Shown here in pieces: positions 1-14,921 of a DNA stretch of 64,000 nucleotides (position 1 is its first letter; every line of letters starts with the position of its first letter). A program made the translations under genes and the position numbers. The notes under the pieces are model-generated. The model was not told where the DNA came from. It worked only from the letters and a program-made list of their open reading frames with translations, and searched no databases. The DNA is from Candidatus Poribacteria bacterium (lineage in GTDB: Bacteria; Poribacteria; WGA-4E; PCPOR2b): contig OZ242326.1 in NCBI GenBank assembly GCA_965208325.1, positions 3,744,001 to 3,808,000 on the forward strand. Reading direction: 5' to 3'.

Positions 1-545
1 GCAACATCAAGAGACAACTGCATCGGCTTCACCTTGTCTTCCTTTTTGTACCAAAACTCTACCTTATCTTCCTTAATCAACCGTTTGCCATAATCATCGT
101 AGATTAAACGGTTTTTGCCGTAAGGATAGTTGGCATAGTAAGTCGTATTCTGGTCATTCGTCAGCATAATAAACACTTTTTCGCCAACTTCAAACGTGGC
201 TTGTGTGCTAACCCACATGCCCATGACCTCTTCTTTATGCGGAACATAGGCTGTGCCACCGAGCACCATGAACTTGATATAATTAGGCCCGAAATTTGGC
301 TCACCCTTAATCATGGTATCTAATCGAACTAGAACATCGGTACAAATACAATGTTTCTTGGGACCTAACAGGTTCTCCCGATAAACACCAGTTAGAAGTG
401 AAACAGTACCAATGGCAACTATATCGCTGTTATCTATGCTTTTAAGCAAAGAATAGAGCGACAAATCATCGAAATAGCCACCGGCAGCAAACGACGTTGG
501 AACCACCAGTCCCATCACCAGCAAAACTACAAATACATACTTCAT
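1..545 (-). CDS. Secreted partner protein of the peptidase array (runs off the window edge)
   Basis: Read by hand, not in the ORF track. GGAGGG SD then ATG at 545 gives MKYVFVVLLVMGLVVPTSFAAGG...SDIVAIGTV...TDVLVRLDTMIKGEPNFG...FEVGEKV...YGKRLIKEDKV, the same motifs as the other partner copies. Confidence 0.85.
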   Translation of the reverse strand, partial: MKYVFVVLLVMGLVVPTSFAAGGYFDDLSLYSLLKSIDNSDIVAIGTVSLLTGVYRENLLGPKKHCICTDVLVRLDTMIKGEPNFGPNYIKFMVLGGTAYVPHKEEVMGMWVSTQATFEVGEKVFIMLTNDQNTTYYANYPYGKNRLIYDDYGKRLIKEDKVEFWYKKEDKVKPMQLSLDV

Positions 546-566
546 CTGAACCCTCCTTTAGGTTTG

Positions 567-1280
567 TTATGGACCGTACGAATACTTTTGGTCTAAAGCG
601 TACTTATCTTCACAATTCAAACTTTCACGCCAATGCGTATTCTTGCTTGGGAAATGCCCATTCATAGAATAATGCGCATAGTCGGGACTATTTGTTCTGC
701 TTACCGGCAGATCGGGATCGTAATAAACATCTTCTAAACCCGCCACATGCCCCAATTCATGGGCGGCTATCTCTTTGATACAATAATAGAGACCTGACTG
801 CCCGTGCTTCTTAAAGTCTTTGTAATAGTTGAACCCGACATCTAATTCATTTATTCGATTGCCGTCAACATTAACATGGTAGGTGAAAGCAATGGTCGGA
901 TTATGTCGCCCCATACAACTATAAGCCATAACATTGCGGTTGTCTTTCACATTGGCGTAAAATTGGTGCGACTCATTCATGTTGTACTTGAACTTAATCT
1001 CACTACCCTGAAATTCAATTTCCGACCATATTTCACCCGCATCTCCACAATCGGGCGATAAAGAGGGATTGCCCGCAGGTCTAGGGCGATATATATTGTT
1101 TACCCAAACGACAATTTCATACACGCCATCACTGTTTTTTTTCTCAGGTGGCCATACCTTGTTTCCGCGTACTATCATCGGATCTTCAGGGCCAGATCCA
1201 TTATTATGACAGTGGGAATGTCCTAGATTCGGACAAACAATTAAAAGAGCGGCTAGCACCAAGCCAAATCTAATCATCAT
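567..1280 (-). CDS. Secreted metzincin (matrixin/M10-like) metallopeptidase, array copy
   Basis: Signal peptide then HCH; zinc motif HELGHVAGLED; Met-turn YSM; C-terminal ESLNCEDKYALDQKY. Confidence 0.85.
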   Translation of the reverse strand: MMIRFGLVLAALLIVCPNLGHSHCHNNGSGPEDPMIVRGNKVWPPEKKNSDGVYEIVVWVNNIYRPRPAGNPSLSPDCGDAGEIWSEIEFQGSEIKFKYNMNESHQFYANVKDNRNVMAYSCMGRHNPTIAFTYHVNVDGNRINELDVGFNYYKDFKKHGQSGLYYCIKEIAAHELGHVAGLEDVYYDPDLPVSRTNSPDYAHYSMNGHFPSKNTHWRESLNCEDKYALDQKYSYGP

Positions 1281-2014
1281 TTCTTCTCCTTTCTAATAAT
1301 CTTGTCAGATTTCTTTTTCAACTCATCGGCTAACTTCTTTGACACAATGGCTTTGCCGTCGGACTCTCGAACGAGCGTCTTAATTTCGTTCTCCAAAGGC
1401 AATGTTGCATTCGCGTCCTTGAGATATGACTTAAGCAAGGATGTCGCCAACTCTAGCGGCATTTGGACAGGCTTGGCAACCGCATCTTTATTATAGTTAA
1501 ACGACACTTTGCCGTCTTTTACCAAACGTTTGCCAAACGTCATCATGTGCACACGATGCCTGCCGTGCGGATAATTGGCGTAATACGATTCGCCTTCGTT
1601 AGTATTGTTGGCTAAAAACAGTAAGACCTTTTCGCCTACGGCAAACTTAACTTCTTGTAACAAGGCTTGTGTCAAAACACGACCAAGGCTTGGCACATAA
1701 GCACTGCCGCCGTGTATCGCAAATTTAATGTGATCTTTGCCAACATTAGGCTTGCCCTTGATAAGATCGCTTATCTTGACAAGCACATCGGTCATCACAA
1801 AATCGGTGTTGTGTGGCAGGATGTTTTCATAATACTTGGCAGACATCAACACCACTGTGCCGACAGCGATAAAATCGCTTTTATCTGCCATATCAAGTGC
1901 ACCGTGCCACGCAATTTCTTCTGGTGTCAAGCCAGTAAACGAATACGGCTGTCTTTCGCCCCAGCACACTCTCGCGCACAAGAGCGCCAACAATACCACA
2001 AATACACACTTCAT
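1277..2014 (-). CDS. Secreted partner protein (putative OB-fold/NTR-like), array copy
   Basis: Start reassigned to MKCVFVV after a GGGAGG SD. Motifs SDFIAVGTV, TDVLVKI..LIKG.PN.G, FAVGEKVLLFL, FGKRLVKDGKV. Stop overlaps the peptidase start (ATGA). Confidence 0.85.
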   Translation of the reverse strand: MKCVFVVLLALLCARVCWGERQPYSFTGLTPEEIAWHGALDMADKSDFIAVGTVVLMSAKYYENILPHNTDFVMTDVLVKISDLIKGKPNVGKDHIKFAIHGGSAYVPSLGRVLTQALLQEVKFAVGEKVLLFLANNTNEGESYYANYPHGRHRVHMMTFGKRLVKDGKVSFNYNKDAVAKPVQMPLELATSLLKSYLKDANATLPLENEIKTLVRESDGKAIVSKKLADELKKKSDKIIRKEKK

Positions 2015-2282
2015 TTGAAACCTCCCTTTGTTAGCGTCAAAAGAATTATTTCCCAACAATTATACCATAATTGCAGTACCAGCGCCGCCAAACCGCGCCG
2101 GCACGACCTAAGATTTTAATTACCGTTTGTGTTTTTACGGCCTCCAGATATTTTGCAATTATGGCATTATTCGCAATCGGTAAGGGGTGTGACGCTTGCC
2201 AAGCCCGGCGACCGCGCTTACCCAACACTTTCGCACAGTGTAGTTGATTGCGGGGTTGCGAATTCCCAACTAACGTAAAATC

Positions 2283-3220
2283 AATCGAAATTACCATTTT
2301 CAGGCTTGCGCCTATAACCATTTTCCAGTGAATTGTTTTGATTTCCTCTAAACTATTAATTCGTTGGAAGAAATCAGAACTTTCAAGTTAACAACGACTA
2401 CGTTATAATTGCGACGGATTAATTTCCATCAGTCAATTCATCTCATCACCCCTCTTTCTTTTAATGCGTGCGTTAAGTCTTGTACAGCTTGTGGCAATGG
2501 CATAAATGGTTTTTCAATAGTCTGTATTACTGCTGGTTATATATCGTTTGATGCCGTGTGATCATCGGCTTAATAATTCTGGTCGACATCATCGTCGTGC
2601 ATCGCTGACGGGGTCGCCTTCTCAACTTCAAAGTATTCCTCGAGTTGAGCAAGCACATGGTTCGCCCGGCGTTTCCAACCAGCATGCCATTGTTTGAATT
2701 TATCCGGATTGAGGTCTACAAGACGTTGATAATGCGCTAGTTTCTCCTCATGGAATCGAGTAATCAACTCATTGTCGACATCCGGATCGGATTGCAATTC
2801 AATTTCAACGGTTTGTCTCCATGCGGCGACCGCCCCGCTGGTGTTGCGCCCCCATGCACCATCGTCAACGGCGCCCGCCATGCGCTGGACAATCTTGACG
2901 GCAGCCTTGCCGGCATTTACAACGAAGTCGCTATAGATATATTGAAGAAATTCGGGCAGTTCCCATGTATGATAGCGTTCAAGATAATCGACATAAAACG
3001 CCTCAACGATGTCTTGCCGTTTTAGGAGGCCTTCGACGGTCTCAGGCGCGTCCGGGAATCGGTCGAGGTTTTTGGGACGCCAGATCTCCCAGCTCTGTTT
3101 CGTGATACCGTCGCATGATATGCCGCCGACGTTCGCAGGTTCGCTACGGTTAATTCCCTTCTCGCTACCGATGATTAGCTGAATGATTTGTGTTCTGTCC
3201 ATTTGAGTTTAACCTCATTC
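2283..3220. repeat. Segmental duplication copy 1 (GH108 gene plus ~290 bp downstream), paired with ~11820-12777
   Basis: The GH108 coding part is nearly identical between copies. The downstream non-coding part is clearly homologous but more diverged (aaatcagaac, tcaattca.c.catcacccc, ttttcaatagtctgtattac). Confidence 0.9.
2570..3202 (-). CDS. Glycoside hydrolase family 108 lysozyme/endolysin-like, copy 1
   Basis: N-terminal E(K)G...GG...GIT motif, DFVVNAG..A.K..Q, DG.WG..T and C-terminal GWKRR, as in GH108 plus peptidoglycan-binding proteins. Confidence 0.85.
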   Translation of the reverse strand: MDRTQIIQLIIGSEKGINRSEPANVGGISCDGITKQSWEIWRPKNLDRFPDAPETVEGLLKRQDIVEAFYVDYLERYHTWELPEFLQYIYSDFVVNAGKAAVKIVQRMAGAVDDGAWGRNTSGAVAAWRQTVEIELQSDPDVDNELITRFHEEKLAHYQRLVDLNPDKFKQWHAGWKRRANHVLAQLEEYFEVEKATPSAMHDDDVDQNY

Positions 3221-3328
3221 TGTGTCGTGCGTTTATCGTTTCGCAGGTATTCGTTTTAGGGTTGCGCCAGTAAGATGCACACATTCATAACACTCTCATT
3301 TTTTAAACTTCGCTTGACACTATCGTCG

Positions 3329-3475
3329 CTACCGCCAGTCAATAGTTGTTGCATTTGAAGGCGTAAAGCAGAATATAACGTCAAATATTCTTCCTTTAGT
3401 TATAAGCCAAAGGATAACACCAAACCAAATCCAGCCAAACATCATGTCATTTGAAAGCCATTTCTAGCGTTTCAT
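3329..3475 (-). pseudogene. Small hydrophobic membrane peptide, possible decayed holin
   Basis: ATG overlaps the stop of the upstream gene: MKR*KWLSNDMMFGWIWFGVILWLITKGRIFDVIFCF...WR*. Early TAG; a 38-aa product could start at 3445. Confidence 0.35.
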
Positions 3476-3816
3476 TTGAGTAGCATGACAATTACAGCGA
3501 CAACTGCTGCGATGCCGCCCAGTCCACCTATGCCTGTGAACAACCAAGTCAACAGCGAGAGTTGCCCGTCATGCCTATTGCGGTCAGCCTCCAAAACCTT
3601 CACGCGTGTTTCTTGGTCAACAGTCGCTTCGTGCATCGCATTCAAAAGCGTTTCAACTTTTGTGCCCTGCGCTTCCGATGCTTTGAGTCGAGCGTCATGT
3701 TGGCCAATCGTTGCACATTGTTTCTCAAGCCGTTCGTGATGGTGATCCATACGAACTTCCATCCTTGAAACAACATCGAGAATTCTATCCAGCTTTGCCT
3801 CGACTGTGTCAGCCAC
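3472..3816 (-). CDS. Phage-type coiled-coil protein with C-terminal TM helix (holin/XhlA-like)
   Basis: Heptad-rich N-terminus (RLKASE, RVKVLE) plus hydrophobic LLTWLFTGIGGLGGIAAVVAVIVML; lies upstream of the GH108 lysin. Confidence 0.6.
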   Translation of the reverse strand: MADTVEAKLDRILDVVSRMEVRMDHHHERLEKQCATIGQHDARLKASEAQGTKVETLLNAMHEATVDQETRVKVLEADRNRHDGQLSLLTWLFTGIGGLGGIAAVVAVIVMLLK

Positions 3817-4150
3817 CTACGGTACCTCCGCACTTGGTATCATATAACGAATTGGAGATATTGTCTGGCGCGTGCACGGTTAGAGCACGTCACTGATTCT
3901 CGTCACCTTACACGTAACACGCGGTGCCTTAATAAACGTCGAAATGAACAGACAACTTTCCCCACGCCGTTGGTTTCCTAATCGCAAACGCAATTTAATT
4001 CGGAGAGACGTCTTGAGTCTGAGGTGCGCCGAATGTACGCAGAGTATTCCTCTCGTTCTTGAACGCTTCGCCAAGTTCCCTTATTGTTCCGAAAATTGAT
4101 TCCCATGCTTTTTCCCAATCATGTTCTAAGGATGATTAACCCTTATGGGG

Positions 4151-4352
4151 GAGTTAGCACGACTCTTCACTCTTACGAAAGGAACTGGCTAGCATATGCA
4201 CTTCCTTTCGTAAGAGCTTAGCAGTGAAGAGTCCCGGCTAGTTTGCCGTTCGCCTTTGTTTGTGCTCCGGAGTCACAGCCTAATCGTTTCACCTAGATTG
4301 GCAGTGATTTAACACAAGCAAAGGTCACGACAGGTATACTAGTAATTGCCTG
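4151..4352. ncRNA. Unassigned structured non-coding element (three consecutive hairpins)
   Basis: gactcttcac-tcttacgaaaggaa pairs with ttcctttcgtaagag...gtgaagagtc (4161-4233); cctttgtttgtg pairs with cacaagcaaagg (4253-4324); caggta pairs with tgcctg (4331-4352). Confidence 0.35.
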
Positions 4353-4392
4353 CCGCCGCGGAATTCCCCCGCCACTTTTTGTTGCCTTATAG

Positions 4393-5082
4393 TTAATTTA
4401 CATGCTGATCGTAGTGATCTTTGAGGGCGAGTTCATCTTCGCAACTCACAGATTCTTTGATATGTTCGCCGGTGCCAGCTGTGGCAAACATAGTGTAGTG
4501 TACATATTCAGGGCAGTTCGTATTGCTTATTGGCAAGTGTGACTTGTAATTCACGTGACGCAACCCAGCGAAATGGCCCCATTCATGTGCCGCGATGTTT
4601 TGGATGCAATATTCGCTGGAATCTACATTTGTGTGGGTGTCAAAGGAGTGGTAATAGTTGTAGATAATGTCGGCTTCTTTGATTCTGTAGGAAAACTGAT
4701 ATGTCCACAACTGGGTGACGGCGAGGTAATCACTTTCGTGGCCCGTTAATCCACGATAGCCAACGGTGTTTGTGCCATCTTCGATATCCGCTTTCTTTGT
4801 GGTTTCGCCCTCGTAATCTAATCCAAACGGAACGTCAACTTCATCGGCGACGCCATTCCATTCGGCGGCGGCGGCGTTAACATCGGTTGAAAGGTAAGGC
4901 ATGTTGTTCGGATAGCTGTTGTTTACATAGTACGGAATGTCGTCGCTCTCATCCCAATATAAGAAACCGACAACCTGTGAAATGTCCTCGCAATCCATAC
5001 TATCATGACAATCGGCATCAACTGCAATTGGTGCAAAAAGACATATAATCAGAATGATACAGCTTGCAATTCGAACGGTCAT
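4393..5082 (-). CDS. Secreted metzincin (matrixin/M10-like) metallopeptidase, array copy
   Basis: Signal peptide, DCHDSMDCED, IKEADI, HEWGHFAGLRH, YTM Met-turn, ESVSCEDELALKDHY. Confidence 0.9.
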   Translation of the reverse strand: MTVRIASCIILIICLFAPIAVDADCHDSMDCEDISQVVGFLYWDESDDIPYYVNNSYPNNMPYLSTDVNAAAAEWNGVADEVDVPFGLDYEGETTKKADIEDGTNTVGYRGLTGHESDYLAVTQLWTYQFSYRIKEADIIYNYYHSFDTHTNVDSSEYCIQNIAAHEWGHFAGLRHVNYKSHLPISNTNCPEYVHYTMFATAGTGEHIKESVSCEDELALKDHYDQHVN

Positions 5083-5801
5083 TATTCGTCCTCCTCGGCG
5101 GCGTCTATTATCGTTTTGGCGCCGGTTTTAATGTCATTAATAATGGTTTCAGTTAGCGTTGCGTCATCGCTTCTGGCCAGTGTCTTGATTTTGTTTTCCA
5201 ACGGCACTGCTGCATCCTTGTCCGCGACAGCTGCTTGTGCGAGTAGGGATGCCATCTCGACGGGCAACCTAACACCTCTAAGCTTGATATCGCTTTTCTT
5301 GTAAAACATTGTAATCTTATTGTCTTTGATTAACCGTTTGCCGTAAAACTCACTGTTCACGTGCAATCGTCCGTAAGGGAAGTTATCGTAATAACCGTTA
5401 GGCGAATCTCTAGACAGGAACAACATGACCTTCTCACCGACTTTGAAGTCAAGATCGTTTGTGATGACTAAGGTCATGACTTGCTGATGGCGTGGGACAT
5501 AAGCAGTTCCACCTTCAATCATGAACCGGACATGGTTTTCGCCAAAATTGGGTTCGCCCTTGATTTGTGTTTCGACTCTTACCACAATTTCGGACATGAT
5601 GTACGAAGAACCGTCGTTATTACGCGGGTGTTCGACATAAACGCCTGTTTTCAAAGACACAGTGCCGACAACAACAATATCGCACCTCTCCACTATTTCG
5701 AGCAGAGTGTATTTATCAGAGACTTTCAATACAATTGTCCCTGCTACTACGATAACCGGTAAAAGAAACAATAGTGTTGCTGCAATCGTGTGCTTCAACA
5801 T
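5082..5801 (-). CDS. Secreted partner protein, array copy
   Basis: Signal peptide; CDIVVVGTV, IKGEPNFG, FMIEGG, FKVGEKVMLFL, YGKRLIKDNK; TAATG overlap with the peptidase. Confidence 0.88.
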   Translation of the reverse strand: MLKHTIAATLLFLLPVIVVAGTIVLKVSDKYTLLEIVERCDIVVVGTVSLKTGVYVEHPRNNDGSSYIMSEIVVRVETQIKGEPNFGENHVRFMIEGGTAYVPRHQQVMTLVITNDLDFKVGEKVMLFLSRDSPNGYYDNFPYGRLHVNSEFYGKRLIKDNKITMFYKKSDIKLRGVRLPVEMASLLAQAAVADKDAAVPLENKIKTLARSDDATLTETIINDIKTGAKTIIDAAEEDE

Positions 5802-5834
5802 GCACTTTCTCCTCTGATGAGATTAGATGTGTAA

Positions 5835-6160
5835 ACCTTTAACCGTGCCTGGCGAAAGCTAGGCACCCTATGGGATAGTGCATCAGGTGGGGTTACCCCA
5901 TGACCCCCATAAGTGGTACGGCGAACTAAAGGCGTAACCGTACCAGCCTGATGTGCTGTCCCGCCTTGCGGCGGATGAGATGGTCTCCGTTTCCAGTTAC
6001 GCCAGCATTTTTCTAGTGAATACTGGAATTTCTGGGACGCGATGGCTACCATCATCGTAAGGGGGTCATCCGCCGCCACCATCGTATGGCGAGTGACGGT
6101 GCTATACTTCCTCCCGTACAGTTACTTTGTACGCCAGAAACCGTCACTTGCCACCTACTT
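5835..6160 (+). mobile_element. Group II intron remnant (domain I fragment, IIB-like), antisense to the array
   Basis: GNRA hairpin gtgcctggc-GAAA-gctaggcac (5845-5866). A 16-bp stem 5872-5887/5947-5962 has G.U pairs only on the + strand and encloses tggtacgg/ccgtacca. atgaccccc (5900-5908) is complementary to gggggtcat (6061-6069), alpha-alpha'-like. Stem 6087-6099/6141-6153. No GUGYG start, RT ORF or domain V seen. Confidence 0.65.
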
Positions 6161-6168
6161 CTTTGACT

Positions 6169-6861
6169 TCAATCGTCATCGCTATATTTGATATCTAACA
6201 CATACATATCTTCACAAGCGAGCGACTCTGGGGTATGCCAGTCGGGTTGCCCGTAACCTTGCATTGTGTAGTGCGCATATTCCGGGCAATTCCACTCATT
6301 GGTTTCATACCCGTCATAATAATAGACATCCAATAAGCCTGCAACATGCCCCATTTCATGGGTAATGACTTGAAGTAGACAGTATTCGGAGCTATCGGTT
6401 GACCCGTGATAATCCCAGTCAATATAGTAATTTAATACTATGTCTGCTTCCTTTATGCGATCGGAATTGGCGTATCTCCAACGTTGGCAATAGGCAAGCC
6501 AACTATCGCGCTGATCTGGGTCGCCATCATACCCGATGCAACTAAGCCAATCGTTATTGCCGGCACGGGCTGTTGTCGTTCCGGTGATACTGATGTTGAA
6601 CGGGATTGTATCGCCCATAAAAGATACGCTAGACCACTCTTCGGCGGCATCTGGTGCTTCGACACTGGGTAATGGCATGTTGCCCGGAAATGTGTCGTTA
6701 CACTGCATGCTGGCAGTATTGTTGTTATTATTTTCCCAATAATGCGAGCCAAGCATTCGGTCTTCGGGCTCTTCGCACGGTACTGTCTCGTGACAATGAG
6801 AATGTACATTAATCGCAACACAAGATACGACTAGAATTGCCATTAGGATGCTACGTAACAT
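6169..6861 (-). CDS. Secreted metzincin (matrixin/M10-like) metallopeptidase, array copy
   Basis: Start reassigned to MLRSILMA. HCHETVPCEE, IKEADIVLNYY, HEMGHVAGLLD, YTM, ESLACEDMYVLDIKY. Confidence 0.9.
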   Translation of the reverse strand: MLRSILMAILVVSCVAINVHSHCHETVPCEEPEDRMLGSHYWENNNNNTASMQCNDTFPGNMPLPSVEAPDAAEEWSSVSFMGDTIPFNISITGTTTARAGNNDWLSCIGYDGDPDQRDSWLAYCQRWRYANSDRIKEADIVLNYYIDWDYHGSTDSSEYCLLQVITHEMGHVAGLLDVYYYDGYETNEWNCPEYAHYTMQGYGQPDWHTPESLACEDMYVLDIKYSDDD

Positions 6862-6862
6862 C

Positions 6863-7588
6863 TTAATCTTCCTCCCTTGCGTCATCAACAACTTTTTGGG
6901 CTGCTGTTTTAACCTGATTAACAACTGCGGTCGTAAGGTCAGCACCTACATCTTGCGTACGAGCGGCAGACTTGATGCTCTCCTCAATACTTCGCGCGGT
7001 CGCTTCATCTTCAATGAAGGCTTTTCCGAGAACGGACACTAAATCGGTTGGCAATTTCACGCCAATCAACGCACGGCTATTGCGTTTATAAAGCATCATG
7101 ACTTTATTGTCCTTGATTGGCCGCTTACCGTAATAATCGGTATGGATATGCAAACGGTCATAGGGATAGTTGGCGTACCATTGTCCGCCGGGGTTTTTGG
7201 ACAGGAAGATTAACGCTTTGTCTCCGGGTTCAAAATATAGATTGTTAATGACATCGAGCGTTATCACTTCGTCCTCTTCGGGAACGTAAACTGTCCCACC
7301 TTCAATCATAAACTTTACGTGATTACTACCATGATTAGGTTGGCCTTTAATCATGGTAGTAACGCGAAAGGTGATGTCTGAGGTAATCATACGTGCCCGC
7401 CCAGGACGAATATTGCGCCGGAGTACACCTGTTTTGTTGGCCACTTGCCCTATACATACAATGTCACTTCGTTCAATCATTTCGAGTAGGGTGTACTTGT
7501 CAGAAATTTCGCGACGGACAGTACTCGAATCAGAGGCTATTGGAAGCAAGCAACTTACAAATACAATTGCTGTAAAAAGGCGTTTCAT
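6863..7588 (-). CDS. Secreted partner protein, array copy
   Basis: Signal peptide; SDKYTLLEMIERSDIVCIGQV, IKGQPNHG, FMIEGG, YGKRPIKDNKV. Closest to the 5082-5801 copy. Confidence 0.88.
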   Translation of the reverse strand: MKRLFTAIVFVSCLLPIASDSSTVRREISDKYTLLEMIERSDIVCIGQVANKTGVLRRNIRPGRARMITSDITFRVTTMIKGQPNHGSNHVKFMIEGGTVYVPEEDEVITLDVINNLYFEPGDKALIFLSKNPGGQWYANYPYDRLHIHTDYYGKRPIKDNKVMMLYKRNSRALIGVKLPTDLVSVLGKAFIEDEATARSIEESIKSAARTQDVGADLTTAVVNQVKTAAQKVVDDAREED

Positions 7589-7699
7589 GAGATTGTCCTT
7601 TCGGGTTTAATTTGTCAAATTCTATTTTAGCGCATTCCGCTTTTGTGCGAAGCAAAATCGTGCCCATAGTAAATAATGCTGACTAACGTCTTCTGAGTT

Positions 7700-7903
7700 T
7701 TACATAGGAGGCAAGTGAATAAATGGAAAACCCTCATCAACTACCAATAGTGTATACTGTGACGGGTGATGGGCTCCAATAAAGCCAGCCCTCCACTTAC
7801 TCTTCGGCGTCTTCGCTGTCTGCTGTGTCATGACAGCGCGCATACACCGAAAAGCTACCAACGCGCTTAGCAAAACTGCAAACCCTAAAATTCTGGTAAT
7901 CAT
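7700..7903 (-). pseudogene. Truncated and frameshifted peptidase remnant (N-terminus only)
   Basis: Signal peptide MITRILGFAVLLSALV, then in a shifted frame YARCHDTADSEDAEE*VEGWLYW, matching CHD...CED...LYW of intact copies. Catalytic part absent. Confidence 0.65.
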
Positions 7904-8568
7904 TTAGAATCTTCCTCAAATAGTAGTTTAGCGCTCGCCCTTAAGCGAGTCGCGATATCAGCAGGTAATGTGTTACTGGATTGCGCTGCTGTCTTAATGT
8001 CTTGCTCTAACCGCAATGCCCCATCTTTATCCGCGATGAACGCCTTTGCCAAATCGACAGGCCTATTTATTGAGTTGCCGGGTTATCTTATGTTTACCTT
8101 ACCATCCTTAATAAGGCGTTTTCCGTAATCGAATCGGTTCAGCCGATACCGATTATGCGGATAATTCCCAGGCCATTATAAATCATTGTTATTGTCGATA
8201 AACAACATCACCTTTTCGCCGACTTCAAATTCACGCTCGGTGGATACATCCAGCGTCATGACCTCATTTCTCTCCGGCACGAAGAACGTGCCGCCTTGTA
8301 TCATAAATTTGACATGGTTTTTCTCGAGGTTGGGCTCTCCTTTGATTAGCGTGTCGATTCTAACGGTAACATCGGTCGTCACCATGCCCCCGCCATCGTG
8401 CACAATGTTATTGCGTTCATGGTTACTCAGAAGTTGCACGGTTCCAACAACAACAAGCTCACTCTTGTCGATACACTTGAGCAGGCTAAATTTATCCAAA
8501 TCTTTTGTAACCGCGTTTGCCGAAAACGCCCACAAAACCACCACCAACGCCACAAATACATACTTCAT
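7900..8568 (-). pseudogene. Partner protein copy with two in-frame TAA stops
   Basis: MKYVFVAL...; the frame continues past TAA at 8178-8176 and 8085-8083 through NYPHNRY...DYGKRLIKDGKV...LAKAFIADKD...LEQDIK to a TGA overlapping the next ATG. Confidence 0.85.
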
Positions 8569-8579
8569 CTGAACCCCTC

Positions 8580-9278
8580 CTAATACATATGCGCAATCGC
8601 CCACTTATCCTCGCATTCGAGAACTTCTTTGTCATGCTCGTTAGGCCCCGAGCCAGAACGCATAGTATAGGGTATCCATTCGGGGCAATTCCCGTAGCCA
8701 TCATCTTCATCGGGGTCATACACAACATGCTCCAAGCCACCAGCATGTCCAAATTCGTGCATTAACACATTCAACAGACAAAACTCGTCATCACCACCGC
8801 CACCACCTGTGTGCGATTTCCAATCATAATACGGGTTAATAAGTATATCAACTTCTTTCAACGTCGTTCCATTCCACCACCGGCGGGCGCGAGCTAAATC
8901 AGCCTCGTCTTCAGGTTGGCCTATTCAGTTGAAGCCGACCGTGTTTTTCCCGTCTTTGACGTTTGCCCGGTATGGCTGCCCCGGCGCCGACACACGATTA
9001 AACCGCAAATCAACAGTTTCGCCGCCAAAAGAAATGTCCGACCATACCGCCGCTGCGTACAAGACATCACTGGTAATGTCTGGGTCATCACTACCTTTCA
9101 GATAGTCTTTGTTAATGTAAAAATCGACAGTCCTTTTGTTAGTCGGCCATTTAATGAAACTACACAACCTTGCTTCTACTTCTTCACAATCCGTATCATC
9201 ATGGCAATCGGCGTATAGGGCGATTGTAATACCAATCAATAGTCCTAACGCGACAACTGCCGCCGCTATTTTCCTCAT
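8580..9278 (-). pseudogene. Metzincin peptidase copy interrupted by one in-frame TGA
   Basis: ORFs 8925-9278 (DCHDDTDCEE) and 8580-8861 (HEFGHAGGLEH, YTM, LECEDKW) are in the same frame, separated only by TGA at 8927-8925. Confidence 0.85.
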
Positions 9279-9979
9279 TGTTTGCTCCTTTTAACTGCTT
9301 TTGCACTATTGATTAAGCGCGTTGATAGTGCCGACGACACAACTTTGTTTGTGCCTTTGGCTTCTAGCTTTATCTCATTTTCCAAACTGCGTGCGGCTTC
9401 AGGGTTTTTCATAAACGCTTTTGCCAAATTAGCTGCCAAATCCAAAGACATCTTCATAGGCTTCGCCCTGTTGTTTTTGGCATATCTAAATTTGACATAA
9501 TCGTCTTTCACAAGCCGCTTGCCGTAGCGCTGCTTGTAAAGGCGCCGCCCGCCATAAGCGTAAGTCGTATGATACTTGTCGTCATCCCCTTTTTTCAAAA
9601 ACAACATCACTTTTTCACCGACAGTGAATTTTATGCCCGGGCTGGTTTCTTGCGTAAGCACCTCACCTGCACTGGGGACATACGCAGAGCCGTCTTCGTG
9701 CATAAATTTGATATGGGTATCACCTAAATTGGCTTCGCCCTTGATAAGCGTTTCAATGCGAAATGTAACATCGGTACAAATCGAATCAGTGCCGCTCTCA
9801 GTCACATCCTCCCGCCAAACACCCGTTAGCAATTCAACTGTACCAATTGCGACTATATCGCAATTCTCGATTGAGTTCAACAAGCCGTAAGACGGAATGT
9901 CTCGCCTTATGGCTGGCGTTCCCGCCTCGCACATACTCGCGCACAAAAGCGCAATCAACGCCACAAATACATACTTCAT
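9275..9979 (-). CDS. Secreted partner protein, array copy
   Basis: Start reassigned to MKYVFVAL. CDIVAIGTV, TDVTFRIETLIKGE, FTVGEKVMLFL, YGKRLVKD; ATGA overlap with the peptidase. Confidence 0.88.
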   Translation of the reverse strand: MKYVFVALIALLCASMCEAGTPAIRRDIPSYGLLNSIENCDIVAIGTVELLTGVWREDVTESGTDSICTDVTFRIETLIKGEANLGDTHIKFMHEDGSAYVPSAGEVLTQETSPGIKFTVGEKVMLFLKKGDDDKYHTTYAYGGRRLYKQRYGKRLVKDDYVKFRYAKNNRAKPMKMSLDLAANLAKAFMKNPEAARSLENEIKLEAKGTNKVVSSALSTRLINSAKAVKRSKQ

Positions 9980-10002
9980 CTGAAATTCTCCGTTTGTTAG
10001 AG

Positions 10003-10362
10003 TTAGTGAGGCTGCCCGAAGGCAGCCCGTCCTCGGTATGCTAACCACCGATATTGATACCCATATTTGTGGTGCAACGCGAATTTATCTTCGCATTCTA
10101 GAGTTTCTTTGTCGTGATTTTGGTTTGTAGCACCATTCATGGTATAACGTTGATACTCTGAACACTGCGTGACATATACGTCGCGCAGCCCGGCAAAATG
10201 CCCAAATTCGTGACTTAGCGTGTTGCGCATACAGTGATTAAACTTACCCCCATCCATTGGACAGCGAGGGATAGGATTTAAGGTGGAAACCGATGGGAAT
10301 TTGAACGTGCTTATGATGGGCATACAAGCTATTGCAATTACAACTAGAAATCTAACCAACAT
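10003..10362 (-). pseudogene. Internally deleted metzincin peptidase copy
   Basis: Signal peptide joined almost directly to HEFGHFAGLRD...YTM...LECEDKFAL. 119 aa versus ~230 aa for intact copies. Confidence 0.75.
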
Positions 10363-10365
10363 CTT

Positions 10366-11094
10366 TTATTCTTCTTCAGCAGTATCAAGTATTGTCTTTG
10401 CCCCTTGAGTTAAGCTAGTTACCATAGACTCCGAAACAACAACTTTGTCGCCAGAGCTCGCAACAGCCAATGTTTTGATTTGATCTTCCAGTAACTGAGT
10501 AGCATCTTTATCTATAAGTGATGCTTTGCCAAGGTTGACCGCCAAATCTAGTGGCATCTCGACAAGAATTGAAGATAGCCCGCCTTTGCTATATTGAAAT
10601 TTCACTTTATCGTTCTTAATCTTGCGTTTCCCATAAGTGCCAAAGCGTACATAGTAGCCGTCATGTGCATAATTAGCAAACATTCGTGTCGGTGTTTTAC
10701 CTAAGAACACCATTACATTTTCGCCAACCTTGAATTTGGGTCGACCGCTCATGTTCATTTGAAGCAATACGCCTGTCTGCGGATGGGCTGCCATTCCGCC
10801 AATTATCATAAATCTAATACAAGCCCCGTCTTGATAATTTGGCTCGCCTTTAATTTCCGAATCCACTTGGATAACAACGTCAGTCGTTATGATATTGCCG
10901 TCCCCAATGATACCACTGCGCCATACGCCTTGCGTTTGTATTACACTGCCCGACACAACTAGCAGGCTCTTATCGACCATTTTTACCAATGAACGTTTAT
11001 CAAGCAAATCTTCAGTGATGAATGTTGACGCATGAACCGTCGCTGAACCCAAAAGCATTATAAACAGAATCCAAACACAAAGTGTCTTTAACAT
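10366..11094 (-). CDS. Secreted partner protein, array copy
   Basis: Signal peptide; SLLVVSGSV, TDVVIQV..EIKGEPN, FMIIGG, FKVGENVMVFL, YGKRKIKNDKV. Confidence 0.88.
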   Translation of the reverse strand: MLKTLCVWILFIMLLGSATVHASTFITEDLLDKRSLVKMVDKSLLVVSGSVIQTQGVWRSGIIGDGNIITTDVVIQVDSEIKGEPNYQDGACIRFMIIGGMAAHPQTGVLLQMNMSGRPKFKVGENVMVFLGKTPTRMFANYAHDGYYVRFGTYGKRKIKNDKVKFQYSKGGLSSILVEMPLDLAVNLGKASLIDKDATQLLEDQIKTLAVASSGDKVVVSESMVTSLTQGAKTILDTAEEE

Positions 11095-11106
11095 TTTGGT
11101 TCTCCT

Positions 11107-11796
11107 TTATTCTAAGCCATACACATCGTGCATTGCCCATACTTCTTCACATTCAATATCTTCACGGTTATGGAGATTAGTTGAAGTTGGTTGCCACATC
11201 GAATATCTGCTATATTGGCTGCTGCATTGGTGGGCATTTGTCAAATCCAGAAATCCCGCAGCAAAATGCCCAAACTCGTGAGTGGCAACATCACGAATAC
11301 AGATTAAACTGCTGCCACCAGTTACGTGGTCTACGAACGGCGCATAATAATTGAACCCAATATCAGATTCAATAATCAGTCCTGTGCTCATAACAATATT
11401 CATACACGCCGCTGGAATATATTGATCGTCGTCACCCCATGGCAACTCGTCAGTCCAACCGACAATGTTATATCCATCGTTAATGAACGGGTTGTTACTC
11501 ATTTCACCGCCATTGGCGAACGCTATGTCAATTGTGCCGCCATTATAGGGTATTTCACTCCACTGAGAGGCGGCGTGATTTACGTCGGCTGCTAATGGCG
11601 GCATGTTAGGCATTGTTTCATTCATTTGGTATCGAACGGTGTCCGCCGTCCAAAATTCGCCGCTAATCATATCGTTTTCAACGTCTTCACAACTCTGGCT
11701 CTCATGGCAATCCGAACGGGTAATATCCAGATAACCAAACACCATAGCAATAAAGGCTACACAAACGAAAAGTGCAAGCTTAACTGACCGTTTCAT
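11107..11796 (-). CDS. Secreted metzincin (matrixin/M10-like) metallopeptidase, array copy
   Basis: Signal peptide, DCHESQSCED, NDGYNIVGW, IIESDIGFNYY, HEFGHFAAGFLD, YSM. Confidence 0.88.
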   Translation of the reverse strand: MKRSVKLALFVCVAFIAMVFGYLDITRSDCHESQSCEDVENDMISGEFWTADTVRYQMNETMPNMPPLAADVNHAASQWSEIPYNGGTIDIAFANGGEMSNNPFINDGYNIVGWTDELPWGDDDQYIPAACMNIVMSTGLIIESDIGFNYYAPFVDHVTGGSSLICIRDVATHEFGHFAAGFLDLTNAHQCSSQYSRYSMWQPTSTNLHNREDIECEEVWAMHDVYGLE

Positions 11797-11819
11797 TTAT
11801 TGATCCTCCTTTATTTTAT

Positions 11820-12777
11820 CATTCGCAATTAGCAGTTTCAAGCTTGTGCCTCAAACTATTTTCGGGTAAGTAGTTTTGACTTCCTCCCATTACAAATTCG
11901 TCGGAAGAAATCAGAACATCCAATTAAACAACGGCTAGGATATATATGCGAAGCATAAATTTCCATTCGTCAATTCAGCACATCACCCCCTTTCTTTTAA
12001 TGCCTGCTTTAGGTGAAGTACAGCTTGTTTCCATGATTCAAATGGATGTTGCAATGGCATAAATGGCTTTTCAATAGTCTGTATTACTTCTGGTTATATA
12101 CGGTTTGATGTCGTTTGGTTATCGTTGTAATCATTGTGGTCGACATCATCGTCGTGCATCGCCGACGGGGTCGCCGCCTCAACTTCAAAGTATTCCCCAA
12201 GTTGAGCAAGTACATGGTTCGCCCGGCGTTTCCAACCAGCATGCCATTGTTTGAATTTATCCGGTTTGAGGTCTACAAGACGTTGATAATGCGCTAGTTT
12301 CTCCTCATGGAATCGAGTAATCAACTCATTGTCGACATCCGGGTCGGATTGCAATTCAATTTCAACGGTTTTTTTCCATGTGGCGACCGCCCCGCTAGTG
12401 TTGCGCCCCCATGCACCGTCGTCAACGGCGCCCGCCATACGTTGAATAATCTTGACGGCAGCCTTGCCGGCATTTACAACGAAGTCGCTATAGATATATT
12501 GAAGAAATTCGGGCAGTTCCCATGTGTGATAGCGTTCAAGATAATCGACATAAAACGCCTCAACGATGTCTTGCCGTTTTAGGAGGCCTTCGACGGTCTC
12601 AGGCGCGTCCGGGAATCGGTCGAGGTTTTTGGGACGCCAGATCTCCCAGCTCTGTTTCGTGATACCGTCGCATGATATGCCGCCGACGTTCGCAGGTTCG
12701 CTACGGTTAATTCCCTTCTCGCTACCGATGATTAGCTGAATAATGTTTGTTCTGTCCATTTAATTTTAACCTCATTC
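11820..12777. repeat. Segmental duplication copy 2 (GH108 gene plus downstream region)
   Basis: Direct repeat of ~2283-3220; homology ends at aacctcattc just upstream of the GH108 start codon. Confidence 0.9.
12094..12759 (-). CDS. Glycoside hydrolase family 108 lysozyme/endolysin-like, copy 2
   Basis: Nearly identical protein to 2570-3202, with a few substitutions and a slightly longer C-terminus. Confidence 0.85.
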   Translation of the reverse strand: MDRTNIIQLIIGSEKGINRSEPANVGGISCDGITKQSWEIWRPKNLDRFPDAPETVEGLLKRQDIVEAFYVDYLERYHTWELPEFLQYIYSDFVVNAGKAAVKIIQRMAGAVDDGAWGRNTSGAVATWKKTVEIELQSDPDVDNELITRFHEEKLAHYQRLVDLKPDKFKQWHAGWKRRANHVLAQLGEYFEVEAATPSAMHDDDVDHNDYNDNQTTSNRI

Positions 12778-13365
12778 CGTTAGTTTATGCACGAGCGACT
12801 TCAACCTTTTTCGACCGCGGGCCAGTCGATTGTTCACGACTGCCTCGCTGAACCCCAACTCTTGAGCTATCTCCTTATGGCTCATACCGCTCAATCGTAG
12901 TAGTAATGGCTGCCGCTCTGAGTCGGGAAGTTGTTCGATTGCCCTTGCAAGCCTGTCCCGCATGTCGACGAGTTCTTGCTGTTGTTCATCGCGCCGATGT
13001 GCAAGCATTGCGGCGTCATTCGATACCTCCGCTTCATTGGCGTCGCGAGAGAGTGAAAGGCACTCAATCAGTTTTTGGCGTTCTCAATACGTCCTTGCTA
13101 TAATCTGAGATGCTATGCGGAACATCCAGTTTGCAAATTTTTCCGGTTTCTTAATTCGCCACAGATTCCGCGAGATGTCAATAAAGGTCTCTTGGACAAT
13201 GTCTTGAGCATCTTCTTGGTTGCGCATTTTATTGAAAGCGAACGAGAGTAGGGGCGATTCGTACCGACTATAGAGCAAGGAGAAAGCGTCCTTGTCGCCC
13301 TCCAAAACCTGACGCACCAATTCGGCGTCGCTAGATTTTTCGCCAGCTTGCATCCCACTCCCCAA
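12772..13365 (-). pseudogene. ECF sigma-70 factor interrupted by one in-frame TGA
   Basis: Region 2 (DAQDIVQETF...FANWMFRIA) and region 4 (AIEQLP...GMSHKEIAQELG...VNNRLARGR) share a frame across TGA at 13086-13084 (...ARTY*ERQKL...). Confidence 0.85.
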
Positions 13366-13799: not shown

Positions 13800-14366
13800 G
13801 TGCCGATGATCCCTGATGAAGTCTATGTTCAAAAAACTATCGAAGGGGATGTAGAATCATTTAATGAGCTTGTGCAGCGTCATCACACCAGAATTTTCGG
13901 GTTAGCTTACCGCATGCTGTCCAATCCTGAAGATGCGGCGGACGCAACACAAGAGGCGTTCTTGGAAGCGTATAAATCGATAAAATCGTTCCAATTCCAA
14001 TCAAAGTTTTCGACGTGGTTGTACCGAGTCGCAATCAATACGTGCCAACAATGCATCCGCAAATCCGACTCGCGTGCGCGTACGCTGTCGGCATACACAA
14101 AAAGCGTCGCAGAAAACGACGCGCAATATGACAGTGATTGTCCGGATCGGATTTTGGTGAAATCGGAGAGCGATCGGATGGTACAGGAGGCAATCAGCCA
14201 GTTGCCGCCTAAACAGCGGATAGTTGTTAGTCTATTTTACATGCAGCATCTCAAATATCATGAGATTGCCGAAGTGCTAGATTGTCCGGAAGGGACAGTG
14301 GCATCGCGATTAAATACGGCGATAAAGACCCTCAAGTCAAAACTGCAAAACCCGCATAACCTATAA
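13800..14366 (+). CDS. ECF RNA polymerase sigma factor (SigW/RpoE-like)
   Basis: DAADATQEAF, FSTWLYRVAIN, LPPKQR, YHEIAEVLDCPEGTVASRL. Confidence 0.95.
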   Translation: MPMIPDEVYVQKTIEGDVESFNELVQRHHTRIFGLAYRMLSNPEDAADATQEAFLEAYKSIKSFQFQSKFSTWLYRVAINTCQQCIRKSDSRARTLSAYTKSVAENDAQYDSDCPDRILVKSESDRMVQEAISQLPPKQRIVVSLFYMQHLKYHEIAEVLDCPEGTVASRLNTAIKTLKSKLQNPHNL

Positions 14367-14390
14367 TCTTTACGAAACGAGAGGACGGCT

Positions 14391-14921
14391 ATGGATCTCG
14401 ATTGCAAGCGTGTTATTGAAAATCTGAGTCTACATTCGAATCCGGACCTTTCTCACGAAGAGAGAGCTGAGTTCAAAATACATCTCGTTCAATGCCAATC
14501 CTGTCAGAAGGAATATGAGGAGATGTTGCATACGGCGGCAGTTCTTGAAAGCCTTCCTGCGCTCGATCCGCCGCCGGATCTCCTTGGGCGGACTCAAGAA
14601 CGGATTACCCGGGAACATCGGCGGCATGGTTTGGCGTTCTTTGCCAACCCGTTCGCCAGCATCCTTAAGTTACTGAAGCTGGATCCCCATCCGACTTTTG
14701 TCAACTGCACAGCCATGCTCTTTTACCTGATGCTCACAGTTTTTCTGGCGAAATTGACCTTTTTTGACACAACAGAGCCGACGCCGGTGAGCACACCCAA
14801 TAGGTCTTTGCACCCGGATGCACAGATTGTGGGTGTGCCGTTAGGTTCGATAAAGGCAACCGTACAGCGCATTGGGACTGAAGAAGAGTCCAAGGAGGGT
14901 TCAACAAACTTGAATAGATAA
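14391..14921 (+). CDS. Zinc-finger (ZAS) transmembrane anti-sigma factor
   Basis: HLVQCQSC (HxxxCxxC) motif and one TM segment; directly follows the ECF sigma. Confidence 0.85.
   Translation: MDLDCKRVIENLSLHSNPDLSHEERAEFKIHLVQCQSCQKEYEEMLHTAAVLESLPALDPPPDLLGRTQERITREHRRHGLAFFANPFASILKLLKLDPHPTFVNCTAMLFYLMLTVFLAKLTFFDTTEPTPVSTPNRSLHPDAQIVGVPLGSIKATVQRIGTEEESKEGSTNLNR

Follow-up and report, generated by a model that had tools for sequence, protein, structure and literature searches.

The window analysed here is a stretch of 64,000 nucleotides (G000:C1:3744001-3808000) from the complete 4.71-Mb genome of a Candidatus Poribacteria bacterium (G000), and its first 11,796 positions carry a tandem array of two gene families that alternate on the minus strand. 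One family encodes peptidases of the metzincin type, and the other encodes proteins of roughly 240 residues that we call partners. The list of open reading frames and the family alignments place seven partner and seven peptidase loci in window 1-11796, the same number that an initial annotation of the sequence had counted, and its suggestion that the array runs past the window edge proved correct: the array continues for about 3.4 kb beyond the left edge, to about G000 3740636, and ends at an IS3 element and remnants. Searches of the whole genome returned seven partner and nine peptidase matches, all inside this one locus, and no copy of either family outside it. Members of both families begin with apparent signal peptides, judged by eye from their N-termini and from the low-confidence N-terminal helices of structural models.

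The repeating unit is a partner gene followed by a peptidase gene. Tight coupling of the two had been noted at six positions, and the junction sequences confirm it at each: ATGA overlaps are found at 1277/1280, 7900/7903 and 9275/9278, a one-base overlap (TAATG) at 5082, a 1-nt gap at 6862 and a 3-nt gap at 10363. Together with one junction outside the window, in the stretch that we describe in the locus numbering L001, this makes six of six window junctions plus one further that overlap or lie at most 3 nt apart. A GGAG-type Shine-Dalgarno sequence is located within the partner 3' end at every junction, and the acidic C-terminal tails of the partners, in which EE is encoded by GAGGAG, serve also as ribosome-binding sites.

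Taken from the left edge, the array begins with partner P1, of which window 3-545 holds the 5' 181 codons; the complete gene (237 residues) lies at L001 14832-15545 and has a 4-nt overlap with the intact peptidase gene M0 (L001 14155-14835), outside the window. Peptidase M1 (567-1280, 237 residues) is intact, has the zinc motif HELGHVAGLED and a YSM Met-turn, and is without two of the five cysteines of the family, those at the CE and NCP positions; its start is overlapped by the stop of intact partner P2 (1277-2014, 245 residues). Intact peptidase M2 (4393-5082, 229 residues; HEWGHFAGLRH and YTM) shares one base of its start with the stop of intact partner P3 (5082-5801, 239 residues), and these two copies were used for modelling. 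Peptidase M3 (6169-6861, 230 residues; HEMGHVAGLLD), also intact, has its likely start at the ATG at 6861, 1 nt past the stop of intact partner P4 (6863-7588, 241 residues), which was identified from its reading frame and the family alignment. The following copies are decayed: a degenerate peptidase remnant (7700-7903) consists of a signal peptide and traces of family sequence (profile E 0.03) from which the zinc motif is gone, the shortened partner pseudogene P5 (7900-8568) contains two in-frame TAA codons, and the peptidase pseudogene M5 (8580-9278), one reading frame broken by a TGA and a TAG, still encodes HEFGHAGGLEH. Partner P6 (9275-9979) is intact and belongs to the sole unit with a clear orthologue in the sister species G002. 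Peptidase M6 (10003-10362) is a deletion derivative of 119 residues in which the C-terminal half, including HEFGHFAGLRD, directly follows the signal peptide and the N-terminal sheet is lost. Partner P7 (10366-11094, 242 residues) is intact by reading frame and family alignment. Finally, peptidase M7 (11107-11796), the first gene of the block, is an intact reading frame with no partner upstream and with a one-residue insertion in its zinc motif, HEFGHFAAGFLD; it may be inactive or altered.

That the locus might be an assembly chimera, a concern raised with the initial annotation, can be ruled out. An 8470-bp contig assembled independently from the short reads of run X1 spans 3772-12241 with 0 differences, six contigs from a second sample (X4) show 0 differences to the array, and pieces of the array recur with 0 differences in run X5, which comes from another study and is labelled sponge metagenome. 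Breaks in the short-read contigs are located at repeated modules that do not belong to the array. Since these independent contigs agree, the stop codons of the pseudogenes are real. A frameshift in M5 was considered and rejected, both pieces being in the same frame and split by in-frame stops. We regard the P5 and M5 copies as pseudogenes because they carry three different stop codons and have decayed faster than their neighbours (70% versus 88% DNA identity to G002). Six runs contain under half of the sequence words of the locus, and four of the six are labelled sponge metagenome; no RNA run is among those listed for the locus. A 6065-bp contig from another sponge metagenome (run X6) matches window 8402-9986, which covers P6 and the M5 pseudogene, with 13 differences in 1585 bp, and is unlike the window on both sides of the match, a pattern that fits mosaic exchange or unit rearrangement among related strains.

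The assignment of the peptidases to the metzincins, made at first from the motif, is borne out by the zinc motif, the Met-turn and a model resembling matrix metalloproteinases (MMPs). The paralogues are 29-46% identical, so that 54-71% of positions differ; hidden Markov model E-values of 1e-35 to 1e-155 mean that their relationship is not due to chance. HExxHxxGxx(H/D), with D or H as third ligand, is present in M0, M1, M2, M3, the M5 pseudogene and the M6 fragment, and the Gly of the motif is often substituted in the peptidases of other genera. A Met-turn Y(T/S)M is conserved downstream, its Met being nearly invariant among 29 sequences. The best window copy reaches 21.2 bits with the Pfam Matrixin profile (PF00413; MEROPS M10A), below the cut-off of 24, and a PDB sequence search gave weak matches to MMP-11 and snapalysin. 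The AlphaFold model of M2, built from a 29-sequence alignment, has a mean predicted local distance difference test score (pLDDT) of 90.7, and its best Foldseek matches are MMP-11 (E 1.3e-6), karilysin and MMP-12/13/14, with 158 PDB chains at E <= 1e-3. Judged from this model, the peptidases are matrixin-fold metzincins with the fold of the MMP catalytic domain.

The window peptidases have neither a propeptide of about 80 residues nor a PRCGxPD cysteine switch; about 25 residues separate the signal peptide from the first strand. Directly after the signal peptide lies a conserved CHxxxxCE segment. Its near-invariant CH-motif cysteine (Cys25) could be unpaired and thus a possible cysteine-switch-like ligand. 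Among the five conserved cysteines of the family, those at the CE and NCP positions are jointly lost in three of the five sequences without either (alignment A5), a pattern that hints at a C31-C190 disulfide. All three homologues tested from genera g2 and g5 (L014 2812-3885, L020 1563-2612 and L028 3285-4412) end in a type A sorting domain of the type IX secretion system (T9SS; TIGR04183, above cut-off), a tail that the window copies do not have. In the last of the three, from genome G010, QEFGH replaces HEFGH, which puts Gln at the first zinc-ligand position.

The partners (237-245 residues in the intact window copies measured) match no Pfam, NCBIfam or PHROG family, and no TIMP, NTR or NtA family of Pfam (PF00965, PF01759 and PF03146) was hit at E <= 1. 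Theirs is a small family: among 1.84 billion proteins we found 405 representatives at E <= 1e-3, 69 of them at E <= 1e-30. The AlphaFold model of P3, built from a 79-sequence alignment, is of high quality (pLDDT 91.7; predicted template modelling score 0.85). Residues 42-180 form a beta-barrel, after which come three helices, with a C-terminal helical hairpin; an IKGxPN loop is conserved in the family. Its top six Foldseek matches are TIMP-2 and agrin NtA (E 4e-3 to 2e-2). In a second look at the fold, the first 12 matches were all NtA, TIMP or NTR domains, aligned over 109-141 residues and thus over almost the full target domain; alignments to generic OB proteins extend over 70-80 residues only. 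Neighbours in a language-model protein atlas that carry a Pfam family belong to TIMP, NtA and TIMP/NTR (0.83-0.89), which we take as leads only. We therefore predict from the models that the partner is an OB-type barrel with flanking helices, similar in fold to the TIMP N-domain and NTR domains, although it is not filed as TIMP. A PDB profile search with the partner returned nothing but helical and coiled-coil noise (E >= 0.55), and a by-eye inspection of the partners found no conserved lipobox ([LVI][ASTVI][GAS]C). No potempin was among the fold matches listed for the partner, and similarity to that group is still possible. Prediction of the complex of M2 (24-229), Zn and P3 (22-239) with alignments gave scores of 0.81, 0.75 and 0.81, a value also reached by one unrelated control (0.81).

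The strongest new evidence that partner and peptidase form a functional couple comes from comparison with single-chain relatives; together with the predicted TIMP/NTR-like fold of the partner, it is better evidence than their co-divergence. The partner profile detected P0150 among the 1.84 billion proteins (E 2.8e-7), a 360-residue protein present on five contigs from two sources, in which a signal peptide, a partner-like barrel (7-150), a Ser-rich linker and a peptidase domain (190-328) with HEFGHFLNLND follow one another. The absence of a second signal peptide shows that P0150 does not represent two genes joined by read-through. When the proteins found with P0150 as seed were scored with both profiles, 16 of 21 showed signal peptide, partner barrel and peptidase in this order; three had the peptidase domain only and two had neither domain. 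The fused set comprises P0150 and P0167-P0182, which are metagenomic and genomic proteins. Alignment of profiles with hhalign relates the partner to the fused family with 99.0% probability (E 2.4e-18, 111 columns) and the peptidase with 99.8% (E 1.2e-27, 173 columns). Of seven fused proteins scored with the Matrixin profile of Pfam, six exceed its threshold (37-65 bits), and their N-domain is covered by no family. The fused proteins differ from the window pairs in being one polypeptide, in having neither the C-terminal helices of the partner nor the N-terminal CHxxxxCE segment of the peptidase, and in carrying extra C-terminal modules (TIG, fn3, dockerin and IPTL-CTERM). By this homology the partner is the free-standing form of a domain that sits between signal peptide and catalytic domain in single-chain bacterial matrixins. 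Since both families are homologous to halves of single-chain proteins, the partner occupies the position of a pro-domain.

Profiles of both families, a check suggested with the initial annotation, were also used to map their range. Of the 176 genomes searched in the phylum, 29 contain the partner and 20 the peptidase. Partners are confined to families f1 and f3; peptidases occur mostly in the same two families and in one genome each of f7 and f8. Neither was found in any of the 112 genomes of family f2. For 33 of the 51 peptidase matches, a partner is encoded on the same strand no more than 600 bp upstream, and for 12 of 51 there is one downstream. Outside the genus of the window, partners are found upstream of the peptidase in 18 of 32 cases and downstream in two, and the order of partner then peptidase thus recurs across genera. 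This recurrence, together with the coupling, bears out the definition of the unit that the initial annotation had given. A search for related loci with a narrower partner alignment matched only a congeneric genome, and a scan of JGI metagenome contigs with alignment A3 found no relative.

Comparison with close relatives shows how the array has changed. A neighbouring housekeeping protein of 1177 residues is 95% identical to its counterpart in G002 and 84% to those in G001 and G003. When G000 is compared with G002 by blastn, the parts that align are the P6 unit (88%), the decaying pseudogenes P5 (76%) and M5 (70%), and the modules of muramidase and membrane protein described below; the remaining array units have no DNA match in G002. 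The P6 orthologues share 92.7% amino acid identity, and their ratio of nonsynonymous to synonymous substitution rates (dN/dS) is 0.20, similar to that of the GH108 genes of the modules (0.15-0.19). This value for the single orthologous partner pair argues against fast diversifying selection, which we reject. The other cross-species pairs have reached saturation at synonymous sites; they are old paralogues, not orthologues. The description of the array as diversified thus stands as far as the deep divergence between copies is concerned, and not in the sense of fast sequence change: to judge from these comparisons, the repertoire consists of old paralogues that were differentially kept, lost or exchanged, and not of rapidly mutating genes. 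A history of birth and death, also suggested earlier, is supported by pseudogenes, remnants, a deletion derivative and the presence of only one unit in common with G002. Such differential retention between genomes that are 95% identical elsewhere marks the locus as one under unusual selection.

Distances between partners and between peptidases co-vary, with r = 0.81 over 20 pairs, and within the genus the correlation holds when labels are permuted only within genomes (Mantel r = 0.55, p = 0.002). Quick maximum-likelihood trees of the two families share most clades, with G001_c as the exception. The co-divergence that the initial annotation had asked about is therefore found, and it does not show interaction: duplication of whole units would be expected to produce it, so we do not take it as evidence of binding. 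The sole DNA similarity between units of the genome lies at the partner 5' ends, which comprise ribosome-binding site and signal peptide (window 1944-2037 versus 9908-10003, and 8527-8573 versus 9938-9984; 79-89% identity). This suggests conserved signals for expression or export, or recombination at unit borders.

We propose that the array is a birth-and-death repertoire of "split zymogens", in which a pro-domain or inhibitor acting in trans and a matrixin are encoded as coupled two-gene units of a sponge symbiont, and we hold this reading to be reasonably probable. It is supported by the coupling of the genes, the order of the pair across genera, the homology to fused proteins, the predicted folds, the peptidase without propeptide, and the potempin and Mtz-Tim analogues discussed below. 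The partner is probably the detachable safety catch of the protease. It would be translated first from the coupled message, and both proteins would be exported separately, the partner presumably by Sec. In the periplasm, the cognate matrixin, which has no canonical propeptide, could be bound and kept latent by the partner, acting as a pro-domain in trans, as an inhibitor or as an aid to folding. The peptidase would become active after release from the partner and might then cut extracellular proteins; the host matrix is the most plausible substrate for an extracellular sponge symbiont.

Several observations weigh against this proposal. P6 is under purifying selection, and the peptidase downstream of it carries stops in both G000 and G002. 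At least one partner is thus maintained without a live cognate enzyme, which implies a partner function independent of that enzyme. Lone partners are common, 52 of 84 partner matches being without a downstream peptidase (for example in L013) and 32 with one. Fusion of a partner-like domain to internalin-like leucine-rich repeats occurs in genus g5, and three of the 14 longer family members tested show it as well; in proteins of 750-880 residues, exemplified by L010 255-2618 (minus strand) of G011 and by P0105, P0113 and P0132, the domain directly follows the signal peptide and precedes long repeat regions. Such lone, repeat-fused and orphan partners argue for an additional role of the domain itself, which could be that of a binder or of an inhibitor of other enzymes, those of neighbours or of the host. 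Moreover, the fused matrixins keep the barrel only and are missing the C-terminal helices of the partner, and a pro-domain position alone does not tell an inhibitor from a chaperone or a targeting module. Finally, there is no conserved cysteine in the seven window partners or in 79 family members, so that Cys1 (CxC) and the disulfides of TIMP/NTR proteins are absent, and the mature N-termini are variable. The mechanism of TIMP is for this reason not simply to be assumed. A further partner relative, P0142, carries HEAT repeats.

Some of the same observations would be explained if the partner served for targeting or as an exosite subunit, in the manner of agrin NtA or PCOLCE NTR, and brought the peptidase to a substrate such as the host matrix, or if it acted alone as an adhesin-like protein of host interaction. 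The fusions to leucine-rich repeats, the 52 of 84 partners without a downstream peptidase, and the purifying selection on P6 beside a dead peptidase all speak for this alternative. On the other hand, the domain is N-terminal in 16 of the 21 fused relatives, right after the signal peptide and hence in the usual place of a latency domain, whereas the binding modules of the fused proteins (TIG, fn3 and dockerin) are mostly C-terminal. Translational coupling with the partner first also mirrors known operons of inhibitor and peptidase, such as those of the potempins (PMC9890683). We consider a targeting role unlikely.

The initial annotation had likened the array to toxin-immunity and effector arrays, a likeness that holds as an analogy. 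Read literally, it would mean that the peptidases are effectors aimed at other bacteria and that the partners confer immunity, orphan partners guarding against the enzymes of neighbours. The deep paralogues, pseudogenes and differences in presence between close genomes would agree with such a repertoire, as would an orphan partner under purifying selection, which is reminiscent of orphan immunity genes. However, both proteins have ordinary Sec-type N-termini, scans of Pfam and NCBIfam found no delivery domain (type VI or type VII secretion system, contact-dependent inhibition, Rhs and others) in any copy, and no secretion-system marker was seen. The T9SS tails of homologues in other genera are typical of secreted or surface hydrolases, and the fused single-chain relatives would intoxicate no differently from ordinary secreted proteases. 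An interbacterial weapon is, in our assessment, highly improbable.

One of the two closest parallels to the split-zymogen proposal is offered by the potempin/KLIKK pairs of Tannerella forsythia. An inhibitor gene lies immediately upstream of each peptidase gene there, its stop overlapping or at most 5 bp from the start, in bicistronic units of which a locus holds several (PMC9890683). PotA, PotC and PotD are OB-fold barrels, PotA pairs with karilysin, a bacterial enzyme of MMP fold, and KLIKK peptidases carry T9SS tails (PMC9890683). Our locus resembles this arrangement in the coupled reading frame at the inhibitor position upstream of the peptidase (six of six window junctions and one in L001), in karilysin being among the best structural matches of the M2 model, and in the T9SS tails of the g2 and g5 homologues; it differs in that the window peptidases are without the tail. 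Compared with potempins, which are lipoproteins of 98-132 residues (PMC9890683), the partners are longer, at about 240 residues, have no conserved lipobox and possess an extra helical hairpin. KLIKK peptidases belong to different catalytic classes (PMC9890683), whereas all units here are paralogues of one pair.

A second comparison is offered by the Mtz-Tim system of Listeria monocytogenes, a single pair with the metzincin gene before tim and with links to phages and mobile elements (PMC8235301). Listeria Tim, a lipoprotein active on the cell wall, is cut by Mtz (PMC8235301), and its homologues outside Listeria are unanchored secreted proteins (PMC8235301). Like Mtz-Tim, the families studied here are conserved as a pair; Mtz-Tim is often located downstream of holin-lysin genes, just as the array blocks follow GH108-like and holin-like genes (PMC8235301). 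The partner-first order is the reverse of that in Listeria (PMC8235301). No sequence or phage relationship was found in PHROGs, in tblastn searches of phage records or in a viral contig scan. Partner size, the missing lipobox, the expansion of one paralogous family into a variable array, the extra hairpin and the homology to the N-domain of fused matrixins set the present system apart from both potempin/KLIKK and Mtz-Tim.

The genes that interrupt and flank the array, which are absent from the initial annotation, bear on this second comparison. A GH108-like, endolysin-like muramidase gene (copy B, 2570-3202, minus strand) interrupts the array; it scores 28.5 bits with PF05838 (cut-off 21.2) and E 2e-16 with the endolysin PHROG 315, and it is 89% identical in DNA to copy A (12094-12759, minus strand), identified with Pfam, which lies directly upstream of an array block. 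A protein of 114 residues with a coiled coil and a C-terminal transmembrane helix (3472-3816, minus strand) is weakly holin-like, matching holin PHROGs only at E 0.04-0.09, and has a second copy outside the window at L001 13250-13699. The duplicated copies of these modules are 89-91% identical in DNA, and their position is reminiscent of Listeria prophages, in which holin-lysin genes precede the pair of metzincin and TIMP-like protein.

An origin from phages or a link to lysis might accordingly be considered: the pairs would then be an envelope module that, like Mtz-Tim, acts together with muramidase and holin-like protein on the producer's own or a neighbour's cell wall, and not on host proteins. 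A GH108-like gene immediately precedes each array block, accompanied in one case and in the off-window copy by a gene for the coiled-coil transmembrane protein, and the GH108/membrane-protein modules are 90-95% identical in congeners. Searches for phage relatives speak against this: neither family has a significant hit in PHROGs (E >= 0.065), M2 matches none of 50,697 phage records in tblastn, a scan of viral contigs came back without relatives of the pair, a fold search of BFVD yielded nothing at E <= 1e-3, and the flanks that were inspected show no further phage genes. The match to holins is weak, the pair occurs without GH108-like or holin-like neighbours in other genera (for example in L012), and its internal gene order is opposite to that of Listeria. 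We therefore judge a lysis module to be very unlikely.

The predicted fold raises the further question of kinship with animal proteins. The barrel with flanking helices and the MMP fold of the paired enzyme recall the TIMP/NTR superfamily (TIMP N-domain, agrin NtA, PCOLCE NTR and complement C345C) and its association with MMPs. Unlike those proteins, the partner has no Cys1, no conserved disulfides and no Pfam hit, and its mature N-terminus reaches about five residues beyond the residue that aligns with Cys1 of TIMP. We call the fold TIMP/NTR-like and claim no homology. If partners and fused N-domains were true cysteine-less relatives of TIMP/NTR, the MMP-TIMP couple might have begun as a prokaryotic unit of pro-domain and enzyme that was split into two genes and expanded to a variable arsenal in sponge symbionts, with orphan or repeat-fused partners acting on host metalloproteases or matrix. 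The symbiont would then both cut and protect the sponge matrix. We regard this far-reaching scenario as clearly unlikely.

Inhibitors of serralysins (Inh/AprI, MEROPS I38) provide another case of a periplasmic inhibitor that is encoded in the same operon as a bacterial metzincin and protects its producer. Inh/AprI is an eight-stranded barrel of a different family, and its gene lies downstream in operons of the type I secretion system. To our knowledge, operons of a bacterial protease with a dedicated inhibitor are known from very few systems. In print we found TIMP-like partners of bacterial metzincins only for Listeria, and in the collection of papers searched none names Poribacteria alongside either "metzincin" or "matrix metalloproteinase". 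A study of the transfer of MMP genes between animals and microbes contains, by a search for these terms, no mention of TIMP, pro-domains, sponges or Poribacteria (PMC12587646).

The natural fusions are direct sequence evidence that an unannotated family with a TIMP-like predicted fold is a detachable N-terminal domain of bacterial matrixins. The array also provides a natural panel of four to five live cognate pairs at 30-45% identity in one genome, which is suited to comparing cognate with non-cognate inhibition specificity. In a wider context, our data suggest that extracellular sponge symbionts possess variable MMP-like enzymes and possible MMP regulators, a finding that bears on life in, and perhaps remodelling of, a collagen-rich host matrix.

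Scans for expression signals gave 36 promoters (shuffled sequence, 26 +/- 6) and nine terminators (shuffled, 13 +/- 4), neither above expectation. The part of the array beyond the window comprises the rest of P1, intact M0, the second copy of the coiled-coil membrane protein, the IS3 element and two remnants. IS3-family orfA and orfB are located at this decayed end (L001 11940-13063, equivalent to G000 3740940-3742063), and beside them lie a peptidase remnant (G000 3740636-3740764) and a possible remnant of a partner signal peptide (L001 11135-11440). At the other end, a gene for an extracytoplasmic function (ECF) sigma factor with one in-frame stop (12772-13365, minus strand) lies directly upstream of GH108 copy A in the same orientation, and an intact, divergent pair of ECF sigma and anti-sigma factor genes is found at 13800-14921.

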